Source: a virus (Duplodnaviria; Caudoviricetes). From it: DNA of 64,000 nucleotides. Shown here piece after piece: positions 26,607 through 49,172 of the stretch (the stretch's first letter is position 1; each line of letters opens with the position of its first letter). The stretch lies in IMG/VR virus record IMGVR_UViG_3300019874_000002, positions 54,720 to 118,719 of that record; one strand, 5' to 3'. The notes beneath the pieces are model-generated. The model did not search any database, was not told the origin of the DNA, and saw nothing but the letters and a program-made list of their open reading frames with translations. A program made the translations under genes and the position numbers.

Positions 26607-27488
26607 TTACACCGTGTTCATGATGTAAATTGGCTTTGCTATATTAGCCATAGGTGTGAAAAACTTCTCGTATGTCGGAAACGAATCAACGTCGTCATTG
26701 CCTTGACTCAACGTAATCCAAGGCATGCGGTGCGGAAACAACAACATGAACTGAACGCGCAGCCAAACATGGTCAATCTCCTCGTCCAACAACAATCCTC
26801 CCAATCCACTAACTAGATCTGACCTTTGAATTTTCTGCAACGCATCCCAAACAGGTTCAAGATCCATTGCGAATCTAAACAAATATTTGTGAGCCACACA
26901 GTGATAATTCTTTTGTGTCAATCCGAACGAACATCCGTTATCCCACCCAATTGCGCGCCAGCACGCTTTCCCATCAACAATGTCCAAACGCGCACCATAG
27001 TTCGCAGCATGACGATCTCGAGAACAGGCTAGGTAATCTAACACCGTAAGGCGTAGCGTGTCACTAGGCGGCAGCTTATCTCTCAAAGTCTCCCGGAGAG
27101 AGATGGCCCACATTTCCCTATCGTTGGGCTTACGCAGCCTTGGCTCAATGGCAACCAACCGAGCTGAGGTCGTGTATTGCTGGTAGGACGCTGTGACACC
27201 TTCAAACTCCCCTAAAATCGTCTCTGGAACTACCTCAAATTTTGGATCATATTTGTGAAGTATTTTACACAGGCGATAGAATGCAACTTCACGTCTTGGA
27301 AACGTCGTCACAGGAAGCCCACGTTGCAATTCACGATTGCGCTTTGTTGCAACCGTAGACGCGATCTTTACAACAGCTTGGATACCGTTTGAATACGTAG
27401 CTAAGCGCGAACCAACTTTCCCCTCTTTCAATAGGGACATCTTTTCAGGTTTCAGCTGCTTAACCGATATTTCGAATGCGGTAGTCAC
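26607..27488 (-). CDS. PI3/PI4-kinase-superfamily (HipA-like) kinase
   Basis: AVVK, REVAFY, VVPET, S.QQY, DYL...DRHAANY catalytic loop, WDNG.SF. Confidence 0.75.
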   Translation of the reverse strand: MTTAFEISVKQLKPEKMSLLKEGKVGSRLATYSNGIQAVVKIASTVATKRNRELQRGLPVTTFPRREVAFYRLCKILHKYDPKFEVVPETILGEFEGVTASYQQYTTSARLVAIEPRLRKPNDREMWAISLRETLRDKLPPSDTLRLTVLDYLACSRDRHAANYGARLDIVDGKACWRAIGWDNGCSFGLTQKNYHCVAHKYLFRFAMDLEPVWDALQKIQRSDLVSGLGGLLLDEEIDHVWLRVQFMLLFPHRMPWITLSQGNDDVDSFPTYEKFFTPMANIAKPIYIMNTV

Positions 27489-28438
27489 ACTTCACACTGA
27501 TGATCCATCAAAGCTCGAACGCTGTATGTAATATCGTCAGACATTGACTTTTTAGTCGACGCTATAATCTTTCCATTCGCATCAAATGCAAATCCAGCAG
27601 GCATCTCGTGCAATTCGCATTGACAACCAGGGTGCACTACACCAATAACAGGTCGCCATTCAGTCCTCCCTGCACGTTTTGGGTGAACGGCTCTACGACC
27701 GTAATTAGTTCCGTTGTTAGCCAACTCTGACAGCCTAAACAGACGTGGTTTACGGCCGTTCGTGTACAGCATTCTACAAAATCTACAGGCGTCTGGTTGA
27801 ATCGTTTTATAAACCAGCGGATCAAACCCATCCGCAGCTATCCCAAGAGCCTTCCCGTGCTCCTTAGCATTATGTAATTCGGTAGCTACAATCAACGCCC
27901 AATCGCGTTGCGTGTCTTTCAATTTCTTTTTGAACCTACGCTCAATCTGCTCTTTAGATGATCGCCTTGCGATACCTAAAGCAATCTCGTGCTGCACTAT
28001 CCCCAAAGCCTCATGCCTAAGCTTCGTCGCTTCTTCGTGCGTAGATTGTTCAAAATCATTAATCATCGACATCGACAGATTTCCGATCAATCGGCCAACA
28101 TGGTCTTTGGTCGCATTAATCGCATCCAATTCGTGTTGTGAGAACTGAGGCGGCGCTGTAGCGACAAACAGCCAAAATTTCTCCGGTGACATCCGCGCCA
28201 ATGACAGGTCATTCTTTGGCGCGCTCGCAGCCATTTTACCAACCGTGTGCGCTGCCTGAATTGCAACCTGAGCGTGCTCGATGCTCCCTTGGCGCAGGAT
28301 ATTATTGCGAACCAACCGATCGTAATCGTCCTTAGAAACTGCGCCTGGACCTAGCACTTCAACAGCAAGCGCAAGGTGATGGTCTGCAATCAATTGCCTG
28401 ACCTTCTCGCGAGCCAAATCGCTAATTGGCTTAGCCAT
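27485..28438 (-). CDS. MuF / SPP1 gp7-like head morphogenesis protein
   Basis: RDW..IV.TE, VYK...PDACRFC, HPGCQC; start ATG 28438 (GGAG upstream) preferred over 28501. Confidence 0.8.
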   Translation of the reverse strand: MAKPISDLAREKVRQLIADHHLALAVEVLGPGAVSKDDYDRLVRNNILRQGSIEHAQVAIQAAHTVGKMAASAPKNDLSLARMSPEKFWLFVATAPPQFSQHELDAINATKDHVGRLIGNLSMSMINDFEQSTHEEATKLRHEALGIVQHEIALGIARRSSKEQIERRFKKKLKDTQRDWALIVATELHNAKEHGKALGIAADGFDPLVYKTIQPDACRFCRMLYTNGRKPRLFRLSELANNGTNYGRRAVHPKRAGRTEWRPVIGVVHPGCQCELHEMPAGFAFDANGKIIASTKKSMSDDITYSVRALMDHQCEV

Positions 28439-28877
28439 TGGCTTTCGCCTCTTTCTCCTCTGGCGTAGGCTCTTTACCAGGATACGAAAACCCTTCCACA
28501 CCTGGAACAGGTTTTAGCTTTTGAAACTCGCCAATTCTCAAAGGCTTCGCTCCAAACATACGCTGTCTCTCATCAGCTGTAAGCGTCTTCGTGTAATAAT
28601 CGTCCGTCGCGAGCCACGAAGGTGCTTTCACGTTAAACTTCTTGCAGTAGTACCTCAATGCTGGACGAATCTTCTCAACGTACTTTCGACGCGCCGCCAT
28701 ATTATCTGCAGTATGGAGCACCATTAGAAACTTTGCATAATGCTTTAGCTGCGCCTCTAATTCATCTTTCGAACGACAAGGCAACACCTTTTCAGGAGTG
28801 TCAACCTCCACACCCTTTGTCCCATCGCCGCGATTGGTCGTCCTGAAGATCACATGGTCTGACTTCTCCTGATTCAC
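28431..28877 (-). CDS. Hypothetical head-cluster protein
   Basis: 148 aa, overlaps both neighbours by a few bases. Confidence 0.5.
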   Translation of the reverse strand: MNQEKSDHVIFRTTNRGDGTKGVEVDTPEKVLPCRSKDELEAQLKHYAKFLMVLHTADNMAARRKYVEKIRPALRYYCKKFNVKAPSWLATDDYYTKTLTADERQRMFGAKPLRIGEFQKLKPVPGVEGFSYPGKEPTPEEKEAKANG

Positions 28878-31800
28878 GACTTTCCTTCTTTCTTCTTCTC
28901 TCCAAACGCAACCATGGATTGCGTCATCAATCCTTGACTCTGAAGCGCCCCCACAACCTTCTGCATGTACTCTTCTGCTTTATCATTTGAGAATGGATTA
29001 CGTCCATCCTCATCGTCCCAAATCGGTTTTAGCTCCTTCTTGATAAACTCGTTCCAATCCCCAGACCTTGTCTTTGTCAAACGCTCAAAGAAATGATGCG
29101 CCTCTCCTTGAGATATCTCGGAACCTTTAACTTTACGAGTGCTACCCTCTTTGAATGGATTATCGCTAGAATGAAACTCCAAACCTAGATTTGGCTTCTT
29201 ACTCGTCACCTTCGACGGCTCGCTACCTTTTGGAATTGGTGAAGCATTCCAGTCTTCGCTATCCTTCTGTTGCTTCTGCGCAGTCTTCTTCTCAACTGTG
29301 CGCTCTGCCGTGCCTACGGTAGCTGTCGCTTGCTTTGGCTTCTCAGCAGCCTTCGGTTGCTCTGCCACAGCCTTTACTTTGCCTTTAGCTTCCTTCTTTG
29401 AGCCAGTCTTTGGCTTCTCGGATGCCAATTCAGGATACTCTTTCTGCAATCCCTCAGCTTGCTTTGCGTAATGGTCAGCTTTATCATTATCGCCTTTATC
29501 ACGGTAAACCTGTTCCATCAGGTTAGCCATCTGAAACTTCTGTTTAGAATTTCGCTTATTGCGGTCAAGCTCCCATTGACCTCTAAACTCTTTTTCGTCA
29601 AAATTCTTTGTAAGCGCATGCGCTCCGCGCTTCTTCAGATTGGCTTTGCCTTCTTTGCTCGGCTCGAAATCCTTATCGGTCAATTGAGCACTCAAACCAC
29701 CCCTACCTCCTGCAGCTGCAGACTCTTTCCAATCTTCTCCAAGAGCCTCAATCTTTTTAGCATGTTTGGACAGTCCAACAGAACCAACCGTCTCCTCTGC
29801 TTCTTTCTGTCCTGGTGACGCCAAATCGTATGATTTGGCGTTCTCCATAATCGTTTTAATCTGCGCCTCGCTAAACGTCGCTCCTTGGACACGACGCATT
29901 AGATCGTGCACAGACCCTTCTACGTCAAACGTCGCACTCGTCGGCAATTCTTTACCAAGCAACGCCCCAACCATTGCTTGTTTACCTGCGATCTTCTGCT
30001 CCACCATCATGTCATACGTGCCTACAGAGCGGTATGTCTTCTCATGAACATCTTCCGTCTGACCAGTACGCCATTGACGACCAATCGCCTGACGCTTTTG
30101 CGCTGGATTCCACGGCTCATCAATAAATAATGTTTTGTTCCCACCTTCCTGTAAATTCAGACCAGCGCCTCCAGAAACCGTGCCTGTCAACAAAACCTTG
30201 GAGTGACCTTTATTGTACTTATCTTGAATATAGCCGCGTTCGGAAGGAGCAACGTCTCCAGCAATCGTATCGATTAACGATGGATCAATGCCACGCTCTG
30301 CGAGTGCTTTCCTAATAATTGGAAAAGCCTTTTGAGGAAATGAGCAAAATGCGACAATACCTTTGGCAGCCTTCCCACCTTGCCCACTATTTGAAAAATG
30401 AGCGATAACATCGTCGCAAAAAGCTTTCAATTTAGGCGTGTGCGCAATACCACCATCAGATTTACGGTATGAGGCATCAATCAATGCCGGAGAAATTGAC
30501 GCTTGACGCTGCAACATCATTTGCATGCCGCCAGCCATGAGCGCTAGAGCACCTTCGTTGTGCTCCTCGTAGCGCTCCCCTGTTGACGGATTAATCTCTC
30601 TCGCTTCGATCTTCGCACGTCGCTCTTTAATCAAACGTTCAATACGAAGCTTGACCATCGTATCGATAACGCCATCCTCCTTAAAATAGTCATTCTGAGA
30701 CAAACCGTTCTCAGAGCTAACTACCTTCGACAGTGCCAAATCACCTTCATCCGGCCATTGCTCTTTTGACTCGCTGACACCTACGCGCTTCGTCAACCCC
30801 TTACCCATATCTGCCACAACGTCTGGGTCAGTGATTGATTTATAAAACACGAACGGCTTTAGTCGTTTATTCAAATCGGCAAGATGCTCAGGATTTGACA
30901 CTCTATATGCTTGGTCGTCTTCATTCCACGCAACACCAGCCATTCTTCCAGACCAAAGCTCTTGATCGCCTACGCTATCTGGTGCAAATAGATTCGCGAG
31001 ATGGTACAAATCCATTGGATCGTTTGGCATTGGCGTAGCTGTCATGCCAAATGCATACTCACGATCTTGCATAACAGCTTTTGCAATCTCGTGTCTCGTA
31101 TTGCCAGCTTTCTTATAACCTCCAGAATGCGCTTCGTCGATAAAGACTGCACCTTCCAAATTTTGAAGAATCTTTACCATTTCATGGTCAGACCCACCGG
31201 TACCATCGTTCTCGTCTTCGCTTGCATTTGGATCTGGAACATCTCCAGTCAAGGTCCCTGACGAAATAAAAATGTACCGCGCTTTCTTCGCCAAATCACT
31301 TTGAAGTGCAACCTTCCGCTCCTCGAGAGAAAAACCGCTTAGATTAAGAATCTTGTCCGCGCTCTCCGGTGCAAACTTCGCAATTACTCCAGGCCACTGC
31401 TCCATCAGCGACGGCGGAAGAAACATCACGGCAGGAATGTCTTTACCTTGTGCACGCAATTGCTCCATGAAAGCAATGACGGTAGGACTCTTTCCCATCC
31501 CTGCATCTTGCGCAATCACACCACGCTTCACCGCCATCATCCAATTGATATACTTCTTCTGGTACCCAAATGGCTCCCAAACCCCTTTACTCGGATCGTT
31601 TGGATCCTTTAGTGTCTTTCCGTTCCAAATACCATCTTTCATCGTCAACGGAACATCAAACGAATCATCTTCTTGCGCAGCGAGAATTTTTACAATCCGT
31701 GCCTGCTCTTTTGCGACGTTTACCAAATGATCGTCCATGATATCGCTCTTACCGGCGACATCGTTCATCTTCATCTTGAAGACATCTGCAAAATGAGGAT

Positions 31801-33265
31801 CCTGCCCAGTATTGTAATCAGTGAACGCTTTGAGAGTCGCTTCTGACGTCTTTTGCAATTTACGTTTCAACGTTGACCGTGCGGCGCTGTCATTGCTGAC
31901 GATACCGAGCTTTTGCGCAATCAAATCAAACACACCATCTATCGTCGCATCGGTGTGATCACCTGGAGCGTAATCGTAAGTGTTGTCAGAAGAGAACGAA
32001 TTCTGTGCGTCCGTCGCCGTATACACGGCCATCAATTGCGACGCATTCAAACGCTCAAGCTGATTATCTTTCCACAGAGACCCTAGATCACGCTTACGAG
32101 TCAGAAGCAAACCAGACTCTGGGATAATCGCGCCACGCATCCTGCGCTGCGCCACACCACCCTTAGAACCTCTTTTGATTAACCCCATTTGATGCATCGC
32201 CACAGTCATCCGCACAGCTAGATCATTTGGGTCGTCGCCCAACATCATATCGGAAGCAAGCGGCGAAAATTCATCGGCCATCTGCTCTGCTTTAATGTAG
32301 AACGCATTACGATGAATCTCTAATTTCTCTGCGGACGCTGTTGCAGCGGCTTGAACCTTTGGATCCTCGTGGAGTGCTTTCCTATAGCGCCCCATCAATC
32401 CACGAATAACCTCTAGAATGTCTTCTGGAGATTCGACATCTCCATATTGAGGGTCACCCACAAAGAGGTCGGCATTCGTTCTAAAAAACTCCTCCGTCGC
32501 CTCTTCAAATCCAATATTGCGACCTCCAATCTTCACAGAGATATTATGCAAACCTCCAGCCTTCTCCACGTCATTTCTCGTAATCCCAAACGAGCTTAAA
32601 ACGTTGTCATAATTATCATGCCACCATTCCATGAAATTATGGTCAGCTTCGCTCAACGCATCGCTATGCAATAACGCGTCGTGTAGATCAAGCTGGTCAT
32701 GCGCTGCAAATGGCTGAGGCATGTAATACTGTCGAAAATGCTCTACAACATTATCTGGTGTCGCTTGCTTTGTGAAACTACCGTGTGGTCGCTCTCCATA
32801 CCGGACATTGCCTTTATCATCCCTCCAAAACTTACCGCCACGCGAACCAGCGCGCTCCACATGAACGTAACCGCTCGGTGTAAGTTTTCGCTCCACAGGC
32901 GCGGAGCTAGACATCTTGTGTTTACCTGTTGCAGCTTGCTCGCTCGGATTGCCTCCGTACCGTCCACCAATTGGCGAATTGGACATTTTCGGCAGCTTTG
33001 GCTCTGCTTTGAAAAGCAAACGTCCGTCGCTTGTGACGACAAACGATCCGGCCGCAGACTTTTCGATACCGTCTTCTTCGAGCACAGCCATTACGTCTGC
33101 TTCTAAAGCAGACATCCGAGCACGATACAGCGCGTTCAAATCATCAGATAAAGTTTGCGTGACAGCGTGACGCATTGGCCGCATTGGAATACGCAACGTA
33201 GCTTTGATGAGCAAATCGTCTCCGATTTGCAAACCCTCAAGTAATGCGTCATCGTCAATCGACAT
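28874..33265 (-). CDS. SNF2-family (SF2) helicase/translocase, head-cluster protein
   Basis: DAGMGKS (I), FIDEAH (II), MTATP (III), GGAGLNLQ (V), PWNP...QAIGRQWRTGQ (VI). Confidence 0.9.
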   Translation of the reverse strand: MSIDDDALLEGLQIGDDLLIKATLRIPMRPMRHAVTQTLSDDLNALYRARMSALEADVMAVLEEDGIEKSAAGSFVVTSDGRLLFKAEPKLPKMSNSPIGGRYGGNPSEQAATGKHKMSSSAPVERKLTPSGYVHVERAGSRGGKFWRDDKGNVRYGERPHGSFTKQATPDNVVEHFRQYYMPQPFAAHDQLDLHDALLHSDALSEADHNFMEWWHDNYDNVLSSFGITRNDVEKAGGLHNISVKIGGRNIGFEEATEEFFRTNADLFVGDPQYGDVESPEDILEVIRGLMGRYRKALHEDPKVQAAATASAEKLEIHRNAFYIKAEQMADEFSPLASDMMLGDDPNDLAVRMTVAMHQMGLIKRGSKGGVAQRRMRGAIIPESGLLLTRKRDLGSLWKDNQLERLNASQLMAVYTATDAQNSFSSDNTYDYAPGDHTDATIDGVFDLIAQKLGIVSNDSAARSTLKRKLQKTSEATLKAFTDYNTGQDPHFADVFKMKMNDVAGKSDIMDDHLVNVAKEQARIVKILAAQEDDSFDVPLTMKDGIWNGKTLKDPNDPSKGVWEPFGYQKKYINWMMAVKRGVIAQDAGMGKSPTVIAFMEQLRAQGKDIPAVMFLPPSLMEQWPGVIAKFAPESADKILNLSGFSLEERKVALQSDLAKKARYIFISSGTLTGDVPDPNASEDENDGTGGSDHEMVKILQNLEGAVFIDEAHSGGYKKAGNTRHEIAKAVMQDREYAFGMTATPMPNDPMDLYHLANLFAPDSVGDQELWSGRMAGVAWNEDDQAYRVSNPEHLADLNKRLKPFVFYKSITDPDVVADMGKGLTKRVGVSESKEQWPDEGDLALSKVVSSENGLSQNDYFKEDGVIDTMVKLRIERLIKERRAKIEAREINPSTGERYEEHNEGALALMAGGMQMMLQRQASISPALIDASYRKSDGGIAHTPKLKAFCDDVIAHFSNSGQGGKAAKGIVAFCSFPQKAFPIIRKALAERGIDPSLIDTIAGDVAPSERGYIQDKYNKGHSKVLLTGTVSGGAGLNLQEGGNKTLFIDEPWNPAQKRQAIGRQWRTGQTEDVHEKTYRSVGTYDMMVEQKIAGKQAMVGALLGKELPTSATFDVEGSVHDLMRRVQGATFSEAQIKTIMENAKSYDLASPGQKEAEETVGSVGLSKHAKKIEALGEDWKESAAAGGRGGLSAQLTDKDFEPSKEGKANLKKRGAHALTKNFDEKEFRGQWELDRNKRNSKQKFQMANLMEQVYRDKGDNDKADHYAKQAEGLQKEYPELASEKPKTGSKKEAKGKVKAVAEQPKAAEKPKQATATVGTAERTVEKKTAQKQQKDSEDWNASPIPKGSEPSKVTSKKPNLGLEFHSSDNPFKEGSTRKVKGSEISQGEAHHFFERLTKTRSGDWNEFIKKELKPIWDDEDGRNPFSNDKAEEYMQKVVGALQSQGLMTQSMVAFGEKKKEGKS

Positions 33266-33269
33266 TTAT

Positions 33270-34574
33270 CTACCCTTCACCGTTACCCTGCGTACGGATT
33301 GGCTCGTCGTCGCCAATACCAAGATGCCCACTCTTTTCGATGTAGTCAGCGACCTCTTGGTCCGTTCCAGTTTCCCAAATCACAAGCTCATTCGTGCCAC
33401 CCTTCTTAATTGGAGGCTCGTTCCGATTTCCGGAAGTGAGCGGCTTGTGAGGGACAAATGGCTTGATGGGTGATGGTCCGCGCGGAGGTAGCTTCGCACC
33501 TCCACCAGGCAATCCTTTCGCAATCAACGCCTTCCTGCCAGCGAGATACGCGATATGATCACCTGCCTCCAGACGAGTCATCTCCGATTTGGAGATCTTG
33601 TACCAACCATCTTTCATCTCGTCAACGTTCATACCCATCTGAACCATTTCGCTTTTGCTGATTGGGTATTCCTCTTGGTCCCCAGCTTCAGGACCGTTGC
33701 AGCTCTTGAGCAGTGGCGCAATTGCATCATGCTCCGATACGCCAGAACCAGGACGAGACGGCTCTACTTGACCGTCACCTCCAGAATGCGGATTGTCATT
33801 GTCGTCCACAACAAATTGAGGCCCTAGCCCTTTGTGGAGATCTTCATGCGTCAAGCCGTGCTTACAATGCACGCAATTGGTAATTGGAGAGTTGGAATCA
33901 TTTCCAAGCTCAGCCTTAAACAGATCAGATATTGCACTCTTTGTCATGTCGTTTTCTCCTTCAGATTTACTTGTGTATGGCTGCAGAGCGCCACTCGTTT
34001 GACGATGAGCAACAGCCAAATTTTTGTGTACGGCTGCTTGCGAGACGTTTCCGGCGATCCTGTGAAATTCATGTGCGCGTTCGTGTTCTCCTGCCGCGTC
34101 ATGATGCAAGAAAGCTTGCACGTGCGTCGGCCGCGATTGGCTCATATTAGCTAATGACGATTTTTGATGAGCCGATTTACCAGCAGTAACAGCCGCTGCA
34201 CCGTATCCGCCATCATCTTTTGGCCCAGACCCAGGACCACCCTTCGCAATACTCACCTTTGGTTTCATCTTCGTATGTCCTTCCTTTCTACGTTGCTTAT
34301 TCACCGTTGCAGCGGCAATACTTTCACTTGCTCCGCTATCTTTAATATGATTGTACTGCCTCTCATCCTTCGCATTCCACCCAGCGCCTTTTTTTACATC
34401 CGGCGTTTTAGACTTCTTTTCCTCTTCCTTTGCAGCGTGAAACTTTGGATTGACGTCAGCATTATCGTGCATTGGAACCTTCACAACGCGCGGCATATGC
34501 CCAACCGGAGCATCTACAGGCTCCCCAATATGATCGTTCGGACCATTCTTCTTTTTGTCAATCTTAACAGCCAT
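33270..34574 (-). CDS. Low-complexity internal head protein
   Basis: ATG at 34574 with AGGAG RBS; many K[SAG] sites, KGGPGSGP motif, His/Ala-rich helix. Confidence 0.6.
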   Translation of the reverse strand: MAVKIDKKKNGPNDHIGEPVDAPVGHMPRVVKVPMHDNADVNPKFHAAKEEEKKSKTPDVKKGAGWNAKDERQYNHIKDSGASESIAAATVNKQRRKEGHTKMKPKVSIAKGGPGSGPKDDGGYGAAAVTAGKSAHQKSSLANMSQSRPTHVQAFLHHDAAGEHERAHEFHRIAGNVSQAAVHKNLAVAHRQTSGALQPYTSKSEGENDMTKSAISDLFKAELGNDSNSPITNCVHCKHGLTHEDLHKGLGPQFVVDDNDNPHSGGDGQVEPSRPGSGVSEHDAIAPLLKSCNGPEAGDQEEYPISKSEMVQMGMNVDEMKDGWYKISKSEMTRLEAGDHIAYLAGRKALIAKGLPGGGAKLPPRGPSPIKPFVPHKPLTSGNRNEPPIKKGGTNELVIWETGTDQEVADYIEKSGHLGIGDDEPIRTQGNGEG

Positions 34575-34584
34575 TACCAACTCC

Positions 34585-36675
34585 TTATTGTGCCACAGGC
34601 TGACCTGGCTTTGAAGACTTCACAGGCTTTACTTCTGACGTTCCAGAAGAAGGCTGACCTTCCAGTACCTTCCCGGTGATCACATCGAACAGCAACCCAA
34701 AGTAATCACCATCTAATCCATGAGCATCACCAAATTCGGCCAAATGTGTACTCATAAACGATACAAACTTCTGTCTCGCATCTTCGCCATATTTCTTCTG
34801 CATCTGCATAACGATTTTCTGAATCACTGCACGTTGTACATTCAATGCAGAACAAAACTCTGCGACATTTAATGTATGTTTTGGAGCCTGTGGTTTCGAA
34901 GGATCAGGTGCACGCACATCCTTCTGATCTGGTTTTTCCGGATGGTCTGCAGCAATAGGTTCCTGGTCTGCATTTGGAGATGGCAAATCAGGATGTGGTA
35001 ATTTCGTTTCTTCTTTTTTGCCAGCTTGCATTTCTGCAGGATTACCGTTTGGTTGCTGTGACGATTGAGGTTTAGCTCCCTGCTCTCCTGGATAATTATA
35101 TCTCACCTGGCCACCACTACCGAGCTTTTTGGAGCTAGCTCCAATGACCTTTGAGCCAACCTTTTTATTACTTGCTTCACGTTGATCGTCGGACATCTTA
35201 GGCAATGCCTTTACCAGCACAGCCTTCCTAAATGGAACAGTCATCCGCTTGCCTCCAATCGATAACGCGACTGAATCGAAATTAATGTCGACAGGCTCAA
35301 AACGCTCCAATGGCGTTTTGTCTTTCTTTCCGATATATGCAAGCGTTACGTGCGGTGTAAAACCATGAACACTTCCGGACGTCAGTCCAGCTTGGCGCAA
35401 CAGCTCCATCAAACTAGAATGCAATCTCGTAATGTCTGGTGAATCAACAGACAAATAAATAACATCCTTACCTTCCGACGATTCACTAGCACTGAACCGC
35501 CCAACGCCGCTCAATGAAGCCTTGATACCGAGCGCTAGACTTGTAAATTTACGAACAACAGCAGCCGCGGCTTTCTTCCGCTTCTCGGTCAATCCTTTAC
35601 CAAGATACGCGAGCGTAATGTGCATCGACTCTGGGGACTCACCGCCGCGGATAGCGATTTTATTTGCAATCTTGTCCGGTAAGTGCAGCGCGATCATCGT
35701 ACCGCTGTGCGCTCCGCCTTTAATAATCAGAGTCGGCATCAACTGGTTAGCTTGTGCTAAAATCTTTACGTCTACGTCGTCATTTAATAGCTCTAAAGCT
35801 TCAACCAACGTAACCCATTTCGCTGCTTCAACCTCTTCACCGTCAACACGAGTGACAACACTCCTAGGTGTCATAACGTAGTAATCGCAAGTACCGCCGT
35901 CATTATGTGTAAACCGCCCAAGTTTTCTATCGATTTCGCACGGTAGTCCTGTTTCTTCTTTTACCTCGCGCAACGCCGTCTCGACATTATTTTCGTACTG
36001 ATTTGGATAACCTTTTGGAAACGTCCAATCATACCCACCAAATCCATTAGTAGGTTTAATCAACAAAACCTTCCCATCAGAATTCATTACAATCCCACCC
36101 CCACAAACTCTCGTCGTGTCTTTATCTAAAACACGATTTACAAATGCGCCCTGCATCAACTGTCTGTAATTACCAGGAACGCGCTCCACCGTGTCGTCTC
36201 CAGACGGCCCCCAAACTCGTGTTGTAGATTCTGGCGCGTCTTCTAATTCTGCGGTCGCATCTCCGTACTGAGGAAGTGGAGACTGTCTAGACCCAATCTC
36301 TTGATTGAAAACTTCCTGTTCTCGGTCCGCCCTCTCTGCATCAAACTTCGACGTCAATCGTTGCTCTGCCTCTTCCAATTGCGTACAGAAATCCAATATC
36401 GCCACGTCGTCACTATCAAGAGGTTTTGCTGTAAAACCATTACCGTTTAATGCAAAAAGGAACGGCCGATCGTGAGAATACAAAACACCTCGGTAGCCTA
36501 GCTTCGTACGCTCGACAAATACTCTGTCAATTGGTTTCACTGTCGACAGTTCGCGAACGTCATCTCTAATCACGTCGTAAATACCAACCGGCGCTGCCTC
36601 CAAATCACCACGAACTGGTTTGGCGTTTACAATCAGTAGTTTTGGATGCACTGAAAGCATCGTGCTATTTTTCAT
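34585..36675 (-). CDS. Nudix hydrolase + 2H phosphoesterase (2'-5' RNA ligase/Acb1-like) fusion
   Basis: Nudix box GYPNQYENNVETALREVKEETGL; two HxT motifs HITLAY and HVTLAY. Confidence 0.88.
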   Translation of the reverse strand: MKNSTMLSVHPKLLIVNAKPVRGDLEAAPVGIYDVIRDDVRELSTVKPIDRVFVERTKLGYRGVLYSHDRPFLFALNGNGFTAKPLDSDDVAILDFCTQLEEAEQRLTSKFDAERADREQEVFNQEIGSRQSPLPQYGDATAELEDAPESTTRVWGPSGDDTVERVPGNYRQLMQGAFVNRVLDKDTTRVCGGGIVMNSDGKVLLIKPTNGFGGYDWTFPKGYPNQYENNVETALREVKEETGLPCEIDRKLGRFTHNDGGTCDYYVMTPRSVVTRVDGEEVEAAKWVTLVEALELLNDDVDVKILAQANQLMPTLIIKGGAHSGTMIALHLPDKIANKIAIRGGESPESMHITLAYLGKGLTEKRKKAAAAVVRKFTSLALGIKASLSGVGRFSASESSEGKDVIYLSVDSPDITRLHSSLMELLRQAGLTSGSVHGFTPHVTLAYIGKKDKTPLERFEPVDINFDSVALSIGGKRMTVPFRKAVLVKALPKMSDDQREASNKKVGSKVIGASSKKLGSGGQVRYNYPGEQGAKPQSSQQPNGNPAEMQAGKKEETKLPHPDLPSPNADQEPIAADHPEKPDQKDVRAPDPSKPQAPKHTLNVAEFCSALNVQRAVIQKIVMQMQKKYGEDARQKFVSFMSTHLAEFGDAHGLDGDYFGLLFDVITGKVLEGQPSSGTSEVKPVKSSKPGQPVAQ

Positions 36676-39600
36676 TTTCGCACACGCTTTCTAATGACGA
36701 TAGCCTTTGCCACTACAGGAGCGTCCTTGCCAAAGACTTTACGAACTGACGACGCGACGCGCGTCAATAGTCCAGGCTTCTTTCCTTTCACTGGAGGCGC
36801 AGCATCAAATTCTCCTTGAGGTAGTTTCTTGGCAGATTCACGCATATTGTGCTGCGTGTCTATTGCCTGCTTTGCTTCCCTATTGCGGCGTTTCTCCTCT
36901 TCAGACATATTTGCATTTTTTGCATGCGCGCGGTCCACTGATTCTTGGCGCTCCCTAGCCTTCCGTCGGTCGTCTTCGTAAAAGTGTTGCTGCTTCTGTG
37001 CTTGAGTCATCCCGGCTAGTGGGTCAAACGGCTTGTGCACATAACGAGGTCTTTCCTTTGAAAGCTTCTCCAATGGAGACAACTCTCTTGGTTCCTCAGG
37101 CTCCTCACGAATTCTTTGATTGTTTCCAATCACAAAATCTGGCGTATCTGCGTACTGCTGTTCCACAGAAGCCGATACGGCCGGTTCATTCTCCTCGTCG
37201 CTACCAATCCGATGGTGCCCAATACGTGTAATCGCTTCACGCTCCACCGCGGCACTGGCATCTGCGCGCGCTTGATTCTTTGCTTCTCGTTCATGATAGC
37301 GTGCAGCGGCTTTGTCCTTTGATTCTTTGTAAAACGCGGCACGATTCTCCAGGTCTTTTTGCGTCTCAACGTACGTAGTTTTGACCTCGCCACGACGTTT
37401 AATACGCTCAGCCTCCAACTCTTTCTTTACTTTTACCTTCGCTTCTTTCACCGCCGTCACAACGGCTTTATGCTCGTCATGCTCACCAGCAAGCTTTGCA
37501 ATCTTCCGGTCTAATGAGCCATGCTTCTTTTTGTCGACAGTTTTCTTTTGTGCCTTGAGCGCAGCCATCTTCTCTTTAATCGTCTTCATCTGGTCACGGT
37601 GCGCAGCCTCTGTATAGCTGTGAGTCTCAAGTTGCTTTTGATGTCCACGCAAACGCTCTCTTGCGTCAACAACATGGCGTGCAACATTTGAACGTTCCGA
37701 GTCTTCTGCGCCTTGCTTTCCATAAACAACATCACCATGGTCATTACGGTACCAAATACCGCCACGCGACCCCGGTTGCTTGACGATATTAATGTGCTTT
37801 AGGATATCGCTCAGAGCATCATATGCGTCAATGCACTCTGCAAATGCCTTTGCTAGATCGCTCCCCTTCGCAACCTTCAAAGCCTTCCGTTGCTCCTGCT
37901 CAAACTCCACAATGTGCAAACGATTCTCGTGCTGCCTATACGCAGCATGTTGCCTCGTTTTCCAGGTTGCCAAATCATTACTCGTCGGCATATCGCGCAC
38001 CGCCAAACGCGACATGTACTCTTTAACCATTGGATGCGCCCCACCAAGAGCATTAGCGGCGGCAGTAAATTGAGCTACCGCTTCTTGGTCTGCACCTTTG
38101 GTATTATGCAGTTTAACAGCTGCTTCGTGCAACTGCACAACACCGACTTTTTCATGCCAATTCGTATTACCTTTAGCATCCGTCACCCACGCACCAACAT
38201 CTTGCGCGGCCTGCATTGTACCATGCGCTTGTTCATGCACTGGTGCCAGATTAGGAATCTGCTTGAGATTCTGAACTAGCTTGTAATGCTCATTCAAAAC
38301 CTCTGCTTTCTGCTGCAGCTGCTTTGGGAGCGTTACATTCTTTATTTGCGCTGGCAGATTCAAATCATTTGCGATGCCAAGCTTTACAGCCAAATCTCGA
38401 TTGGAACCTGGTTGCTTAAAAAACGTAATCGCTGGATGCTCGTGAGCACGAACATGTTGAACCTTCGGCTCCGCCAGCTTGGGCATTTGAGCCACAGGAA
38501 CGGCCGTCCGATCCTCAATCTCTCGACGATTGAGTTTTGCCACCTTCGACTCGAGACGAAGCCACTTTTCAACCACCAATCCATCCGGTGTCAAACCGCC
38601 TTGTCGCGTCTTCAATCTATTATTTACGTGCTCTAAAGCTGCGGCGTACCACTTCTCCAAATGGTATCCTTGCTTATCAACAGAGAGTGTCCCTAGCAGC
38701 GCCTTCTTTCCTTTGGGCAGCTCTACAGTGACACCAGCAAGCTTTGTGGCAATTGATGAAACACCATGCTCGCTACCAGTCCACGGACGGCCCCAATGCA
38801 ATCCAGCTTTGCCGTACTTCTCTTGATGCCTCGCGCGTTGCTCATTGAACGCGTGCTCTTGTGATTTATCAGGATGCGAGTCGTCATCGTCCATCCACAA
38901 ACGCGATTCTAACGCATAACGCATATGTGGCGGTAGATCGGCGATAGCTTCTCGAATAATCTTCTTTGCAATTGGCTCGTAGTGATGCAGCTCAAAATGC
39001 TCCCTCGGAGAAATCATCTTCGGAGCTTTGTACTCCTCCTCCTCGTGGAGATCTTCAAGCGCTGTTGCCCCAAGCTCAATCGCGGCTTGCTTCGCAAACT
39101 GCTCGAGATGGTTCTTAATCGCGTTCTCTGCGCGCAAATCAAAACGGCTGTACTGGCCTTTTGGCTCGTCATTTGGAACGTATTTGTTCGCTTGATCGAG
39201 GAGCACTGCGACAGCTTCATTAAACATGTCACGCTCGCGATCATACATATAACGCTTAGCAGATGACTCCGCCAACTTTCCAGCATAACCCTCCCTATGC
39301 GTTACCTCATCCATTTCTCTATAGATGTCCGTCGAAGCGAACACACTACCAAACTTGCGAGTCCACCTTCGGATAAAAGGCGCCCATTCCTTCAACAACT
39401 GCTCACGAACGCGTTTGCTCTTATTGTCAGGGTTCCAAATTCCCAATGTAATGAGCGTCGTCAGCGGCCGACCTTCTGTTCGTGAAAGCTCATGTTGCAA
39501 TTGCGCAGGAGAATCAAACTTATTCACCGCCCACATTGGAAGCGGACTGATCTCGCGTTTACCTACAACCTCGTCGAATTGACCTTCGCGATCAGCTCGA

Positions 39601-40382
39601 GCTTTCGCCTGACCAGCTTCCGTCTTGGCGTGACTTGGTTTTAGCGCTCGCAGTGACGCGTCGAGATACGCCGTCGCAATCACGAGCGGATCCTCTTCTG
39701 CAGTTAAAGGCTCTCCGATTGATGTCCGGTTCTCCGGTAGCCTCTTAGGCACATTGTGGATACCCAACTCTTCAATCGTCGGTTCAATCTCGTAAACACC
39801 GTACGGTCCGTGTTCATGCACCTCACGCACACCACCGAGGGGCCGATCGTGTGTTCCAGTTGCTGGCAGTTCAATCTTGTCTTTGGTCGGCACGGGCTCA
39901 CGAGGCTGTGCTTCGACCTTATATTGCGTAATCTTCTTTGGGAGTCCTTCCTCACTACCGCCGTATGCTCTAGCAACGGATGAATCCCTAAACTCAAACG
40001 AAGTGTACCCTTTGTGTCTTTGAACTGGATCAACAACGACTTTGCCCCTGTCTGTTGTCCGAGTCCGGTACTCAATCAGTAAACCACGCTTCTGCCAAAA
40101 CCTGCCGCCCTCTTTGAAACCGTATTCCCCGAACAACTCCCTATTAATTATCTCCCTGATTGCAGCTTGCCCAGTGACTTGACCCTTCTCGTCAAGCTCA
40201 TTTTCATTGGGGTAAACATATTCAACCGTTCCATCCGAGAGCGTGATCTTTGCAATGTATTTGTGCGCCGCACCTTTAACAGACTTCTCGTCATATCGAA
40301 CATTGCCATGCTCGTCTAAACGAAACTTAGCACCCCTTGCCCCAGGGCGCTTTACGTTCTCTGCTTTGAAAAGGAGCAGCAT
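36672..40382 (-). CDS. Large head-cluster protein containing sigma70-like region 2/4 segments
   Basis: 1236 aa directly after portal; sigma similarity by motif inspection only. Confidence 0.6.
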   Translation of the reverse strand: MLLLFKAENVKRPGARGAKFRLDEHGNVRYDEKSVKGAAHKYIAKITLSDGTVEYVYPNENELDEKGQVTGQAAIREIINRELFGEYGFKEGGRFWQKRGLLIEYRTRTTDRGKVVVDPVQRHKGYTSFEFRDSSVARAYGGSEEGLPKKITQYKVEAQPREPVPTKDKIELPATGTHDRPLGGVREVHEHGPYGVYEIEPTIEELGIHNVPKRLPENRTSIGEPLTAEEDPLVIATAYLDASLRALKPSHAKTEAGQAKARADREGQFDEVVGKREISPLPMWAVNKFDSPAQLQHELSRTEGRPLTTLITLGIWNPDNKSKRVREQLLKEWAPFIRRWTRKFGSVFASTDIYREMDEVTHREGYAGKLAESSAKRYMYDRERDMFNEAVAVLLDQANKYVPNDEPKGQYSRFDLRAENAIKNHLEQFAKQAAIELGATALEDLHEEEEYKAPKMISPREHFELHHYEPIAKKIIREAIADLPPHMRYALESRLWMDDDDSHPDKSQEHAFNEQRARHQEKYGKAGLHWGRPWTGSEHGVSSIATKLAGVTVELPKGKKALLGTLSVDKQGYHLEKWYAAALEHVNNRLKTRQGGLTPDGLVVEKWLRLESKVAKLNRREIEDRTAVPVAQMPKLAEPKVQHVRAHEHPAITFFKQPGSNRDLAVKLGIANDLNLPAQIKNVTLPKQLQQKAEVLNEHYKLVQNLKQIPNLAPVHEQAHGTMQAAQDVGAWVTDAKGNTNWHEKVGVVQLHEAAVKLHNTKGADQEAVAQFTAAANALGGAHPMVKEYMSRLAVRDMPTSNDLATWKTRQHAAYRQHENRLHIVEFEQEQRKALKVAKGSDLAKAFAECIDAYDALSDILKHINIVKQPGSRGGIWYRNDHGDVVYGKQGAEDSERSNVARHVVDARERLRGHQKQLETHSYTEAAHRDQMKTIKEKMAALKAQKKTVDKKKHGSLDRKIAKLAGEHDEHKAVVTAVKEAKVKVKKELEAERIKRRGEVKTTYVETQKDLENRAAFYKESKDKAAARYHEREAKNQARADASAAVEREAITRIGHHRIGSDEENEPAVSASVEQQYADTPDFVIGNNQRIREEPEEPRELSPLEKLSKERPRYVHKPFDPLAGMTQAQKQQHFYEDDRRKARERQESVDRAHAKNANMSEEEKRRNREAKQAIDTQHNMRESAKKLPQGEFDAAPPVKGKKPGLLTRVASSVRKVFGKDAPVVAKAIVIRKRVRK

Positions 40383-40383
40383 G

Positions 40384-42435
40384 TTAATTCAAATCAATCT
40401 CAAAAAAGTCCATATCAATTGATTTCTTGACACTGCCCAATTGATCATGGTGTGCAGACACAATATTTTTCGCACCTGACAGTCCGTCCGCTTCACCGAG
40501 CTTTTGGAACGTTTGACCTCCCCCAGGTTTATAGCTCACAGATGCACGATTAACGACCTTATCGTGACTGATCGAGTACATCCCATGAGTCGCAATACCT
40601 GCGTGATAATCAGTTGCAGGTGACTTCATCGTTCGTTTGAAACTGACAGTACCGTGAAATGGTTTGGGGCCAGAACCAGAACCGCCTTTATACAAATCGT
40701 TATCTCTCACAGATGAATGCACGCTGGACTCCCAATCGTTTTGCTTCAGGAAACGAATGTTGTCGTCCTCTTCGTGAGATTCGTCTTGAGGTTTTGAACC
40801 TCGCGCCATTGCACCAAGCTTTTTACCAGCATCTTTCGCCGTCGGAGATGGCCCGTCTCCAGCATTGCCAAAACGGTTTGCGTACGGTTGCTCTGGAGGC
40901 TGTTCCTCGTCACCACCTTCATCACCACCAGGAGCGCCCATTCCAGGCGGCATTCCGCCAGCACCTCCGCCTTGCTGTTCTGCCATTTCCTTCTGCATGA
41001 GATACTGAAGGTAAACAGGATTGGCGATCACATCACCATGCTTCACTGGACCGACATCATCCAATGCGCGCAGCTCATTGATAGTGACGTGCGTTTGACC
41101 TTGCTTCTGGCGCAGCTCTGCAGCTTGTTCCTCACTCTTCGCATCGAGACCTACGAGCACAAACTCAAAATCCTCATCGATACGGTCAACGATGTTCCGA
41201 TTGATGAAGGTTTCAAAGAAGCGAAGGAGAGGCTTTAATCCTCTGTCCTTTGAAAGCTTCTGCTGAGCTTCGTTATTGCCCATGAACACTGGTTGCTGAC
41301 CACCAGCGCTCCCACGCAAATCAAAGTTAATCTCGCTTGGATCCATCTGATACAGCGCACAAGCCACCTTCACCAGGTACTCCACCCACATCTGGTAACC
41401 CATCTCCGTATTGGACATCTGCATCTGCTGGAATTCGACACCGTCCGAATTAATGATCGGTGTCCTCCAGGCATTGGTAATACCTCCAACCTGAGCCATC
41501 CATTGGCGCTTGAACGCGTCGTATTTCTCCTTCGAGATATTACCTTTCAGATTCAGGATGCCTTTAATCGTGCTTCCCTGCGAGAACGCTTTCTTATTCC
41601 ATTCCTGCGCCCAAATATGCGCCGTCACAATTTGAATCAAAATCTGCGGCTCTGGAAAGCCGTACCCTCCGACCTTTAGATTAGACCTTGGATTGCGTAT
41701 CCCGAAGGAAAGGGTTCTCGGCGTGAAATCGCGCAAAATCTCGCCATTAATCATCTGCACGTACATCACATGCGATTTCTCTTGAGAGCGCGCAATCGGA
41801 TGGCCCTTCGGATTCGTCTTCGTTTGATCTGCAATCCTAACCGTAGACGGATCCATTACAAGCGTTTCATGAAGCTTGCCACCACGATTATAGACGTTCT
41901 CCATGTTGACTTGGTCATACGTCAATGAATCGCGCGTCATCATCTTCATTGCATCAATCAATGGAGCGCGTGTAATATTCTTCTCAGCGCCCATATGTTG
42001 AACGTAGTAACCAACCTTCTTCGAACGGTCACGTTCGCCGTTGTCCATCCTACGATTGCGCTTGTCCTTGTCTTTGAAGCGCACCATATTGCCAACGCTG
42101 TACTTATTCTCTTGCTCCTGGCAAAACGTACTCATCTGATTATTACGTGTTGTCACGATTGAGCCAAGCAGCGTGTCTTGCTCTGTCATTTGACGAAGCG
42201 TCTCGTATGTAATCCTCGCTGGATTGGACCTGTAGCCCATTCCAATAGAATCAATCAGTGAAAAAGGATCGGCGTAGAACCCTTGCGGTTTCGCTTCTTG
42301 CGGCGGAGGTGTCGCCAGATCGTGCAAGGATTTTGCAATCTTCTGAAACAGCTCTCCAGTAGCTTCGTGAATTGCGTGCTTGACCTGAGGCTGTAATCCA
42401 GCTTCGATCTCTGCAATTGGCGTCTGCTCCACCAT
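40384..42435 (-). CDS. Portal protein with C-terminal extension
   Basis: TYETLRQM, RDSLTYDQ, DPSTVR, RNPRS...GYG..E, FSQG...KGIL, NAWRTPI, DPSEINF, SKDRGLKPLL, TINELR. Confidence 0.92.
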   Translation of the reverse strand: MVEQTPIAEIEAGLQPQVKHAIHEATGELFQKIAKSLHDLATPPPQEAKPQGFYADPFSLIDSIGMGYRSNPARITYETLRQMTEQDTLLGSIVTTRNNQMSTFCQEQENKYSVGNMVRFKDKDKRNRRMDNGERDRSKKVGYYVQHMGAEKNITRAPLIDAMKMMTRDSLTYDQVNMENVYNRGGKLHETLVMDPSTVRIADQTKTNPKGHPIARSQEKSHVMYVQMINGEILRDFTPRTLSFGIRNPRSNLKVGGYGFPEPQILIQIVTAHIWAQEWNKKAFSQGSTIKGILNLKGNISKEKYDAFKRQWMAQVGGITNAWRTPIINSDGVEFQQMQMSNTEMGYQMWVEYLVKVACALYQMDPSEINFDLRGSAGGQQPVFMGNNEAQQKLSKDRGLKPLLRFFETFINRNIVDRIDEDFEFVLVGLDAKSEEQAAELRQKQGQTHVTINELRALDDVGPVKHGDVIANPVYLQYLMQKEMAEQQGGGAGGMPPGMGAPGGDEGGDEEQPPEQPYANRFGNAGDGPSPTAKDAGKKLGAMARGSKPQDESHEEDDNIRFLKQNDWESSVHSSVRDNDLYKGGSGSGPKPFHGTVSFKRTMKSPATDYHAGIATHGMYSISHDKVVNRASVSYKPGGGQTFQKLGEADGLSGAKNIVSAHHDQLGSVKKSIDMDFFEIDLN

Positions 42436-42441: not shown

Positions 42442-43569
42442 TCACCCAATGCGACTGACGTTTGGTGCTGATTTACTCAAGTCATAGTACGGCGCTTTAT
42501 CAATTGGATGCTCGTCAGGATTCGCTCTGATGTCTTTCACCTTTGCACGCAATGTCTGAGCTGCAGCATGATTGCCTTCCTTCTCCGCATCACCAGCAAC
42601 AGCTTCCATCGCACCAACGCCGCGAGCATGTGCTTCGTGCTCGGCTGCAGCGTGTGAGTGATTTTGAGACATATTGCGATGATTCAAATGCTCGCTGTAA
42701 TGATTTACGTCAGGTGCGTAGTTACCAGTCCTTCGCTCTTGCGCCGCTGCAGCGTAATGCTTTGCTGATTCGCCTGCATGGTGCGTCGCCTTCTCCCTGT
42801 GGTACGCTGCAATGTCAATATTCTTTTCTGGCGTCAAATGGTGCCCAAGCTCTGTTTCAATCGGCGCCCAGTGCTCACCTGCAAACTTATGGTGAATTGA
42901 ATCAGACGCAGGACCCTCTTTAATCTCCGGTCCATACGATCCAAAACGAACGTGGTGTGTGTTCTTGATTTCGTGTCCACCAGACGTTTTGTCAACTGTC
43001 TTTTTTTCTCGTGCGCCTTCCTTCTTTATACGCGAACGCTCTTTGCTCTCTGCAGCCTTTGCCGCTTTGGCTTCGCGTTCCTCTGAAGGAGTTTGCTTGC
43101 CTTCACCCTTTGCTTTATGAGCTGCAGCAATATGATGGTGGAAGGCTCTGACCTTATCGCTATTGCTGTAGTTCAAAGCTTCTTTACCGTGGTGCTGCGC
43201 AGCGTCTGAGTGCTCCTCGGTTGTATAATCCTTCGCTGCACGACGGACATGACTCGCTGCATGTTCTGCCAGCTTTCCTTCGGCAGTCTTCTTCTGCAAA
43301 TTGACATGGCCTCTCATGTACTCTGTTGCCGATTCAGACGGAGCGTAAACAGCTTTTCCGCTCTTGGTGTGTCCAATCACCTTCCCTCCTCGAGACCCCT
43401 CACCATCTGCTTTAATCAGTAGCGACTTGACCACAGGAATTTTGGTTGTTTTCGCTGTCGATGCTGGCGTAGGATTGACTGTAGTTTTTCTGTTTGGCGT
43501 ATCAGGAAGAATCGGCGCCGCTCCTTGGCGAGTCGCTTTCGATTCACTTGATTCAGGCTTTGGCGTCAT
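42442..43569 (-). CDS. His/Ala-rich internal head protein (probably the -1 frameshift extension of the upstream gene)
   Basis: LLIKADGEGSRGGKVIGHTKSGKAVY; no clear RBS at 43569; frame open upstream to about 43710. Confidence 0.6.
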   Translation of the reverse strand: MTPKPESSESKATRQGAAPILPDTPNRKTTVNPTPASTAKTTKIPVVKSLLIKADGEGSRGGKVIGHTKSGKAVYAPSESATEYMRGHVNLQKKTAEGKLAEHAASHVRRAAKDYTTEEHSDAAQHHGKEALNYSNSDKVRAFHHHIAAAHKAKGEGKQTPSEEREAKAAKAAESKERSRIKKEGAREKKTVDKTSGGHEIKNTHHVRFGSYGPEIKEGPASDSIHHKFAGEHWAPIETELGHHLTPEKNIDIAAYHREKATHHAGESAKHYAAAAQERRTGNYAPDVNHYSEHLNHRNMSQNHSHAAAEHEAHARGVGAMEAVAGDAEKEGNHAAAQTLRAKVKDIRANPDEHPIDKAPYYDLSKSAPNVSRIG

Positions 43570-44408: not shown

Positions 44409-44596
44409 TACTGAGGTCCTTCCTGCAGCGTACAGCTGAAATTGATACACGACCAATCATGTGTTGGGCATGTGCTAGCGTCACTCGGTCCACAGACATC
44501 GGACTCAGTTAACAAACGTCCACCATTAACAAAGCCAAACTTCTCAGTCGTGAGACTGCGAATAGTTTGCTTATTGAGATGTAGTGCTTTCTTCAC
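44408..44596 (-). CDS. Lanthipeptide-type RiPP precursor 1
   Basis: MKKALHLNKQTIRSL...VNGG then core with 4 Cys and many Ser/Thr; coupled to both neighbours. Confidence 0.75.
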   Translation of the reverse strand: MKKALHLNKQTIRSLTTEKFGFVNGGRLLTESDVCGPSDASTCPTHDWSCINFSCTLQEGPQ

Positions 44597-45030: not shown

Positions 45031-45239
45031 CAGGTATCGCCCTCACTCGCTAATATAGGGAGCTTTGGGAGCTTTGGGATATCCCTCCAAAACTTCGTCA
45101 CACCTCTACCAAACGTGAATGCGCTGATCATCTCCTTCATAGCTTCCATATCAATAAGAAACTTGTCAGGCAGAACTATAATCGGAGCACCGATAGCCTC
45201 ACCAAAACGACGACGTTTCCACAACGACGTCAAAGTCAC
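45030..45239 (-). CDS. WKRR-tagged small protein containing a major-capsid-like segment
   Basis: GGAGG RBS; TFGRGVTKFWRDIPKLP versus MCP TFSQGHMKLWKDIPKLP. Confidence 0.7.
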   Translation of the reverse strand: MTLTSLWKRRRFGEAIGAPIIVLPDKFLIDMEAMKEMISAFTFGRGVTKFWRDIPKLPKLPILASEGDT

Positions 45240-46003: not shown

Positions 46004-46004
46004 T

Positions 46005-48913: not shown

Positions 48914-48922
48914 CGCACTTTA

Positions 48923-49117: not shown

Positions 49118-49172
49118 GGTGTCTCCTTTGTTACCCGGTATTCGAGGGACCTTTATCGCACAAATTTGCTCG

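Follow-up and report, generated by a model that had tools for sequence, protein, structure and literature searches.

A gene directly downstream of the portal gene of a tailed phage encodes a modular protein of 1236 amino acids (aa) whose conserved core is very probably homologous to sigma factors, the RNA polymerase (RNAP) subunits that set the start site. The gene lies in the window, a stretch of 64,000 nucleotides that forms the right-hand 64 kb of the complete 118.7-kb IMG/VR virus record IMGVR_UViG_3300019874_000002, and was identified as an open reading frame (ORF) translation:

36672..40382, minus strand: gene for the 1236-aa modular protein (P0001)

Judged by its sequence, the core is a real but very divergent sigma factor copy, and the sigma half of the original prediction made for this DNA is thereby supported. 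As for the protein as a whole, the chances appear even that it is a modular head-cargo protein in the polyvalent style, packaged and injected, which engages host core RNAP by means of its sigma-70-derived core.

Sequence profiles of the protein family

The sigma signal can only be seen with a family profile, since the single sequence matches nothing: the 1236-aa protein by itself gave no match in Pfam, PHROGs or PDB (phmmer). It has 14 close homologs (40-58% identity), and a profile search of 1.84 billion representatives extended the family to 58 clusters. The part that the distant members have in common is profile 250-565, corresponding to aa ~275-600, which is the sigma-like stretch, and a family alignment of 50 sequences (A4) was built over it. 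A profile of 13 close homologs yielded only noise against PDB, and the sigma signal emerged after distant members had been added. With the 50-sequence profile (hmmsearch), the top seven PDB sequence matches were all sigma factors, among them Bacillus subtilis SigA (7ckq_F, E=0.005), RpoH (0.011), another SigA (0.04) and FliA (0.16). The alignments were colinear, with one block covering regions 2.2-2.4 and a second covering region 4.1.

The resemblance to sigma factors, which had originally been judged by eye, is above chance. When the family was compared with an alignment of Escherichia coli sigma factors by hhalign, a score of 32.2 (P=4.6e-6) was obtained over 207 columns, running from query 30 to 315 and from sigma-2 through the end of sigma-4, while the reversed sigma alignment scored 6.6 and 30 column shuffles scored at most 10.7. 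The accompanying probability of 71% is based on a small alignment (RpoD residues 360-613, RpoS, RpoH, FliA and RpoE; effective number of sequences ~3); these five sigma factors were chosen because a search for RpoE homologs returned only near-identical RpoE.

Curated hidden Markov models (HMMs) point in the same direction at lower scores. PF04542 matched below threshold in seven of ten distant members, with the best score in P0045 (21.8 bits against a cut-off of 24), and PF08281 was matched in one distant member. TIGR02937 was the top or sole NCBIfam match in eight of ten sequences, including the domain from the window (E=0.055), and in P0024, P0029 and P0043 its positions 17-153 of 165 were covered. 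When the family HMM was run locally on ~1,700 six-frame ORFs together with the E. coli sigma factors, RpoH, RpoD and RpoS came next after the true members. A language model placed aa 290-630 next to viral proteins of sigma size, some of which carry PF04542, and we take this as a lead only. The distant members are closer to the sigma consensus (DLVQEGF...) than the window protein is.

The family is rare and absent from cultured phages, Pfam, PHROGs and NCBIfam, and the sigma homology is for this reason a new annotation for a conserved portal-linked gene. In addition, tblastn against 50,697 GenBank phage records found no homolog and no cultured relative, and a pattern scan of 185,579 species genomes revealed no prophage copy of the family.

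Predicted structure

The AlphaFold2 (AF2) model of aa 270-630, made from the 50-sequence alignment, had a predicted local distance difference test score (pLDDT) of 89.1. Among 48,161 chains compared with this domain model by VIA-align, the best was the sigma-2 domain of Staphylococcus aureus SigB in an open complex (8x6g_H; Z 8.3, root-mean-square deviation [rmsd] 2.5 Å over 91 aa), which placed aa 298-434 on sigma-2. A separately built model of aa 1-870 (13 sequences, pLDDT 69.5) had the same SigB chain as its top match (Z 8.5), with rmsd values in the range 2.5-2.6 Å. About half of the top 50 VIA-align rows were sigma-2 or sigma-4 domains, and SigI6, SigW, sigma-E region 2, SigC, sigma-70 (1sig), RpoS and sigma-32 were found among the further sigma-2 rows. 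A sigma-2 fold of aa 298-436 is thus predicted in both models, with sigma-2 rows on top.

For the second domain, the matches included region 4 of sigma-E on -35 DNA (2h27_D; Z 5.6, 69/69 aa, 20% identity) and region 4 of SigR (5fgm_A; Z 5.3, 65/65 aa). Both of these alignments require an insertion of ~65 aa, because they span 133 residues of the model, and the recognition helix of region 4.2 was aligned weakly. Full-length sigma chains superposed over model residues 32-337 with sigma-2, linker and sigma-4 in colinear order. In BFVD, the best matches were phage sigma factors (Bacillus phage Deep Blue, E=0.019, probability 0.93). The fold evidence carries weight because sequence profiles and fold agree, and because both domains appear in the right order. 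Profile and structural matches were accordingly found for both sigma domains 2 and 4, the domains named in the original prediction. In comparisons of the kind that it looked to (HHpred, Foldseek), hhalign and the family profile found sigma factors, and no row was significant with Foldseek against PDB.

Several results weigh against this homology. Pfam gave no match to four sub-pieces of the 1236-aa protein even at E<=10. The curated sigma HMM cut-offs were reached by none of the sequences: for TIGR02937 (cut-off 42.9 bits) the window protein scored 13.1 bits and the best relative, P0045, 26.3. By VIA-align's own caution a Z of ~8 lies within the chance range for helical models, and Foldseek returned no significant PDB row for the whole or the domain model, though sigma factors crowded the top of its results. 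An explanation that builds on such results is that a helical bundle has converged on sigma-like packing and a few motif-like strings, with no true homology; every HMM match below its curated threshold, the lack of Foldseek significance and the frequency with which helical models reach Z 7-8 by chance would all be expected under it. We nevertheless consider convergence improbable. Six partly independent lines (PDB profile search, hhalign with shuffles, Pfam, NCBIfam, two structure libraries with two models, and language-model neighbours) converge almost exclusively on sigma factors, the order of sigma-2, linker and sigma-4 is colinear each time, and the closer resemblance of distant members to the sigma consensus is also at odds with a chance likeness.

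Domain organization and comparison with sigma-70

The 1236-aa protein can be divided into the following parts, in order from the N-terminus:

40290..40367, minus strand: N-terminal tag, aa 6-31, K-A-x-N-V-K-x-P-G-x-R-G...G-x-x-R-Y
39903..40265, minus strand: N-terminal domain rich in beta structure, aa 40-160; of the flanks it is conserved best (mean identity of 65% among close homologs)
39075..39491, minus strand: sigma-2-like domain, aa 298-436 (profile, hhalign, structure)
38985..39074, minus strand: acidic linker, aa 437-466 (68% mean identity, low pLDDT)
38583..38984, minus strand: sigma-4-like domain, aa 467-600 (profile, structure)
38505..38582, minus strand: near-invariant helix, aa 601-626, V-x-x-W-L-R-L-E-x-K-x-A-x-x-N-R
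37803..38435, minus strand: C-terminal helical domain, aa 650-860
37713..37793, minus strand: second PGSRGG..Y tag, aa 864-890, which opens an extra module
36675..37712, minus strand: charged Lys/Arg/Glu/Ala-rich C-terminal extension, aa 891-1236, net charge +20

The four motifs from which the sigma-like domain was originally recognized were found in the order given, spanning nucleotides 38898-39407 and thus within the predicted interval 38600-39420. They are REQLLKEWAPFIRRWTRKF (aa 326-344), RDMFNEAVAVLLDQANKYVP (aa 384-403), RFDLRAENAIKNHL (aa 413-426) and IIREAIADLPPHMRYALESRL (aa 475-495) of the 1236-aa protein. Their assignment to sigma regions was essentially right for 2.2, 2.3/2.4 and 4.1, while the first motif, taken for region 2.1, is nearer to region 1.2/2.1 than strictly to 2.1.

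In the sigma-2-like domain, region 2.2 is represented by D385-M-F-N388-E389...L394...Y401 and region 2.3/2.4 by R413-F414-D415...I422. Residue by residue, the correspondence with E. coli sigma-70 across the 50 aligned members is as follows:

D403: D385, D or E in 48/50 members
L404: M386, mostly L in the family
Q406: N388, Q or N in 38/50
E407: E389, E in 19/50 and D in 6
L412: L394, L, F or M in 50/50
F419: Y401, Y in 47/50
K426-F427: R413-F414, part of a near-invariant R-F-D (48-49/50)
Y430: R417, aromatic in 14/31 distant members; Lys or Arg in 13/19 of the window clade, which is non-aromatic throughout
W433 and W434: N420 and A421, non-aromatic in 50/50
I435: I422, mostly I

The face formed by region 2.2 is the surface by which sigma docks on the beta-prime clamp helices. 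As read from the alignment, this core-docking signature appears to be kept family-wide, at the positions of D385, N388, E389 and L394. The acidic linker sits where the linker between sigma-2 and sigma-4 (region 3.2) is expected, and is poorly ordered in the model yet strongly conserved. In the sigma-4-like domain, region 4.1 reads L483-P...R494-L-W-M-D498, with the family form L-P-x-x-x-R...R-L-W-L-D-D. It is followed by the insertion of ~65 aa, which carries the conserved residues W530 and R532, and the place of the region 4.2 helix-turn-helix is taken by a short helix, a beta hairpin and a long helix. The helix at aa 601-626 is the most conserved motif of the family and is without a counterpart in sigma factors.

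No family match was found for the N-terminal domain, and an ESM-atlas search with aa 1-280 gave no usable match. Residues ~707-837 were modelled as a four-helix bundle with generic matches only; an anti-sigma role for this bundle was considered and dropped, its sole support being a generic RsiG row (Z 5.6). The extension at aa 891-1236 had no family match in PHROGs or Pfam, and the second tagged module (aa 864-1236) is present in only three of 15 close homologs. With its own tag, the extension looks like a once-separate cargo gene that has been fused to the sigma-like protein.

Gene order and the shared tag

That the 1236-aa protein adjoins the portal, as originally noted, was confirmed. The genes around it, all on the minus strand, are arranged as follows:

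40384..42435, minus strand: portal protein gene, directly upstream of the 1236-aa gene (PF04860, E=1e-22)
26607..36675, minus strand: rest of the cargo-like block, downstream of the 1236-aa gene
34585-36675, minus strand: Nudix+2H gene, head block
33270-34580, minus strand: gene for a 436-aa protein, head block
28874-33265, minus strand: SNF2 ATPase gene, 1463 aa, head block
27485-28501, minus strand: gene for a MuF-like protein, 338 aa, head block
26607-27488, minus strand: gene for a 293-aa protein, head block
25854-26603, minus strand: prohead protease gene
22607-24010, minus strand: major capsid protein gene

The ~14 kb from the portal to the prohead protease and capsid genes is thus occupied by the 1236-aa, Nudix+2H, 436-aa, SNF2, MuF-like and 293-aa genes. 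The ATG of the 1236-aa gene starts one base past the portal stop codon (TAAcATG) and its own stop overlaps the start of the Nudix/2H gene (ATGA), and from this 1-base gap and overlap we regard the portal, 1236-aa and Nudix/2H genes as translationally coupled late genes.

Two relatives, L005 and L006 (47-56% identity), have kept the order portal, sigma-like, Nudix/2H, 436-aa, SNF2 and MuF. Genomic context at greater distance was examined in one phage, L007, where the portal is followed by a 1293-aa fusion of 2H and sigma-like parts, a topoisomerase IB (Topo IB) protein, a 453-aa protein and a 1460-aa SNF2 protein. The search for related loci gave none for P0047, P0051 and P0038 and only a fragment for P0033. 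An N-terminal 2H domain was present in five of 32 distant members and a C-terminal Topo IB core in one (P0028). The Topo IB core is of the eukaryote type (PF01028, E=1e-27) and lies beside the sigma-like protein in L007 (13752-15938, plus strand) and is fused to it in P0028 (aa 1278-1455). This suggests that the pairing of a DNA-topology module with a transcription module recurs in distant relatives.

A short tag with the consensus V-K-x-P-G-S/A-R-G-G/A-K-x-W/Y/F-x-D-x-x-G-x-x-R-Y-G occurs in four places in three head-block proteins, in each case on the minus strand and just past a hydrophobic-x-K|A site:

40290-40367 and 37713-37793, minus strand: 1236-aa protein, N-terminus and aa 864-890
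32786-32863, minus strand: SNF2 protein, aa ~135-160
43330-43422, minus strand: aa ~55-80 of a 375-aa protein encoded upstream of the portal

A profile search found the tag also inside unrelated large metagenomic proteins, and these carriers bear ART-PolyVal, LPD1, InPase, RelA_SpoT, ddrB-ParB, RadC, GNAT, Nudix and 2H domains. This set is the repertoire of the polyvalent proteins, which are predicted to be packaged and injected (Iyer et al. 2017, PMC5512222). The tag may serve to load polyvalent proteins into the capsid or to mark them for processing.

Transcription genes of the phage

The phage has a tail sheath and a baseplate and is a myovirus. Its major capsid protein is ~35% identical to those of SPO1-like myoviruses of Bacillus, Listeria and Enterococcus (Herelleviridae), the nearest cultured relatives found. 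No match to a multisubunit RNAP was obtained in the 118.7-kb genome. A single-subunit RNAP was not found among ORFs of >=550 aa compared with PHROGs, of which most match other functions and five match nothing; the null search with PF00940 (T7-type RNAP) was uninformative because its control also gave no match. No other sigma factor was detected in the 118.7-kb genome with Pfam or an E. coli sigma HMM. For transcription, the phage appears to rely entirely on the polymerase of its host. Sigma-70-type promoter-like sites were not enriched in the small-gene region at 44100-64000 (25, against 23.5 +/- 5.1 in shuffles).

One explanation for such a gene complement is that the protein works as a common phage sigma factor or transcription regulator, is not packaged, and has its gene in the head operon by chance, acting in the same cycle, for example on very late genes. 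SPO1-like phages use sigma factors of their own for middle and late transcription, and the distant relationship of the capsid proteins (~35% identity), together with the lack of another recognizable sigma factor and of an RNAP in the phage, would fit this. However, the protein is 1236 aa long, has flanking domains and bears a tag common to neighbouring cargo-like and to polyvalent proteins. Its position after the portal is kept in relatives, among which fusion to a 2H phosphoesterase and a Topo IB neighbour occur. Moreover, translation is coupled to that of the portal, so that the protein is made when late transcription is already running. Within the same cycle there is little use for a sigma-derived module that is produced only with the head proteins, and we regard this explanation as quite unlikely.

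Possible role during infection

A packaged and injected protein that presents its region 2.2 face to host core RNAP is in our inference the most economical reading. The original prediction had likewise proposed a sigma factor or sigma mimic brought in by the virion, which on entry redirects host RNAP or blocks it. What was computed here is the sigma homology, the gene context, the common tag and the lack of a detectable phage RNAP or other sigma factor, and the idea of delivery draws on the coupling to the portal, the conserved synteny of the cargo-like block and the polyvalent-protein tag; from these we infer packaging, injection, RNAP binding and an effect on transcription. The course of events would be as follows. 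The conserved core (aa ~298-626), consisting of sigma-2, the acidic linker, an elaborated sigma-4 and the family-specific invariant helix, would descend from a sigma-70-family factor. The 1236-aa protein would be made late together with the portal and be loaded into the prohead, probably by way of the short N-terminal PGSRGG..Y tag, and trimming by the prohead protease is possible. It would be released into the next host with the DNA. Host core RNAP would there be contacted at two sites, its beta-prime clamp helices by the region 2.2 surface of sigma-2 and its beta flap by the sigma-4 part. The polymerase could as a result be steered to phage DNA, or be sequestered from host sigma.

Some observations weigh against this course of events. 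Packaging is argued from gene position and the common tag only. The equivalents of W433 and W434 are non-aromatic in all members and that of Y430 is so throughout the window clade, and sigma-4 has acquired the insertion and hairpin; the loss of the tryptophans and the remodelling of sigma-4 tend to point to something other than a textbook sigma factor. Finally, k-mer enrichment and an expectation-maximization-type search of 44 intergenic regions revealed only words resembling ribosome sites and no shared promoter motif. A sigma mimic or decoy is as open as a true sigma factor, since the promoter-melting tryptophans are missing.

The same observations could be reconciled with an internal head or ejection protein that is sigma-derived but has no role at RNAP, being instead a DNA-binding protein or structural scaffold for which sigma ancestry is mere history; it could, for instance, hold or protect the leading genome end or be part of the ejection conduit. 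The missing aromatic residues, the large sigma-4 insertions, a non-sigma helix (aa 601-626) as the most conserved element and the lack of a promoter motif in the intergenic regions are compatible with this, as are weak structural rows for ejection proteins, namely DEV gp72 (Foldseek E 1.1), the cyanophage A4 pre-ejectosome (Z 5.9) and the T7 ejectosome. These rows are at noise level, however, and lie beneath many sigma rows. The linker at the position of region 3.2 is strongly conserved, and the exposed polar residues of region 2.2 (equivalents of D403, Q406 and E407) have been kept across 50 divergent members, which speaks against a scaffold because a mere scaffold would not need them. We find a purely structural role unlikely, though less so than a non-packaged sigma factor, and continue to favour a packaged protein that engages host RNAP. 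It is conceivable, but on balance doubtful, that a clade of tailed phages packages a sigma-derived protein in the capsid and injects it with the genome, the protein then capturing host core RNAP before phage gene expression, so that the polymerase is redirected or withheld from host sigma.

Relation to known systems

The core shares with group 3 and 4 sigma-70 factors (SigB/F/G, FliA and the extracytoplasmic function [ECF] factors sigma-E and SigW) the sigma-2 fold, the colinear layout and the lack of a recognizable sigma-3. It also shares their motifs D-L-x-Q/N-E-G/A...L...Y/F in region 2.2, R/K-F in region 2.3 and L-P-x-x-x-R...R-L-W-L-D-D in region 4.1. These factors are free subunits of 20-30 kDa, whereas here the module is embedded in a 1236-aa protein, lies below all curated HMM thresholds, is without equivalents of W433/W434, has a sigma-4 with the ~65-aa insertion and hairpin, and bears an extra invariant helix after sigma-4.

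Free-standing phage sigma factors, such as phiEco32 gp36 and SU10 gp32, are similar in that a sigma-family module is encoded by a phage that lacks an RNAP of its own. SPO1 gp28 and gp33/34 and T4 gp55 are further examples, and a chain of the T4 late-transcription complex (7d7d_F) was among the structural rows (Z 5.8). In contrast to the module of the window, which is part of a portal-coupled late gene, free-standing phage sigma factors are small proteins, expressed separately as early or middle products, and work within the cycle in which they are made. In SU10 the sigma factor gene is served by a promoter of its own, located among the middle genes (PMC4281155). A single peptide of this ECF sigma factor was seen in SU10 particle preparations, in which many non-structural proteins were present as well, so that it does not count as evidence of packaging (PMC4281155). 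Literature phrase searches found no published description of a packaged, injected or virion sigma factor, and this SU10 factor was the nearest case.

The polyvalent proteins (PMC5512222) are similar in several respects. They are multi-module proteins encoded in a head operon with portal and MuF genes, and the family in question has 2H fusions in relatives, Topo IB and SNF2 neighbours, and a tag in common with carriers of ART-PolyVal, LPD1, InPase, RelA_SpoT and ddrB-ParB. The modules of the 1236-aa protein (N-terminal domain, sigma-like core, four-helix bundle and tagged charged extension) are shuffled among relatives. Unlike polyvalent proteins, the window protein is without any Pfam polyvalent-protein domain and has only the tag in common with them, and the word sigma does not occur in the polyvalent-protein survey (PMC5512222).

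Transcription machinery delivered by virions is represented by the N4 virion RNAP, the virion RNAPs of jumbo phages of the phiKZ/AR9 type and the T4 Alt ADP-ribosyltransferase (PMC5512222, PMC5449584). The logic proposed here would be that of N4, phiKZ and T4 Alt, with a protein made late, borne by the particle and injected, securing transcription before phage gene expression. Whole polymerases are delivered by N4, phiKZ and AR9, and T4 Alt modifies RNAP covalently, whereas in the present case a docking or specificity subunit would putatively be delivered. The known routes to early transcription are host sigma-70 promoters, an injected complete RNA polymerase and an injected polymerase-modifying enzyme. 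To these, delivery of a sigma-like docking subunit would add a fourth and cheaper route, and a third injected strategy beside whole polymerases (N4, phiKZ) and RNAP modifiers (T4 Alt). With it, the polyvalent-protein repertoire would gain a transcription module, none being listed there, and such a subunit may explain how phages with neither an RNAP nor a free sigma factor take immediate control. The protein is in addition a natural example of the limits of sigma-2 and sigma-4 divergence, with the region 2.2 surface kept, the melting tryptophans lost and sigma-4 split.

Other genes of the head block

Two of the smaller genes in the block encode proteins for which no PHROG match was obtained (at E<=0.001 for the MuF-like protein). 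The 338-aa MuF-like protein has the C-terminal end H-P-G-C-Q-C-E-L-H-E, the signature expected for minor head proteins of the MuF/SPP1 gp7 type. The 293-aa protein, encoded in the interval between the MuF-like and prohead protease genes, holds D-R-H-A-A-N-Y-G, which is similar to the catalytic loop of PI3/PI4-kinase-like enzymes.

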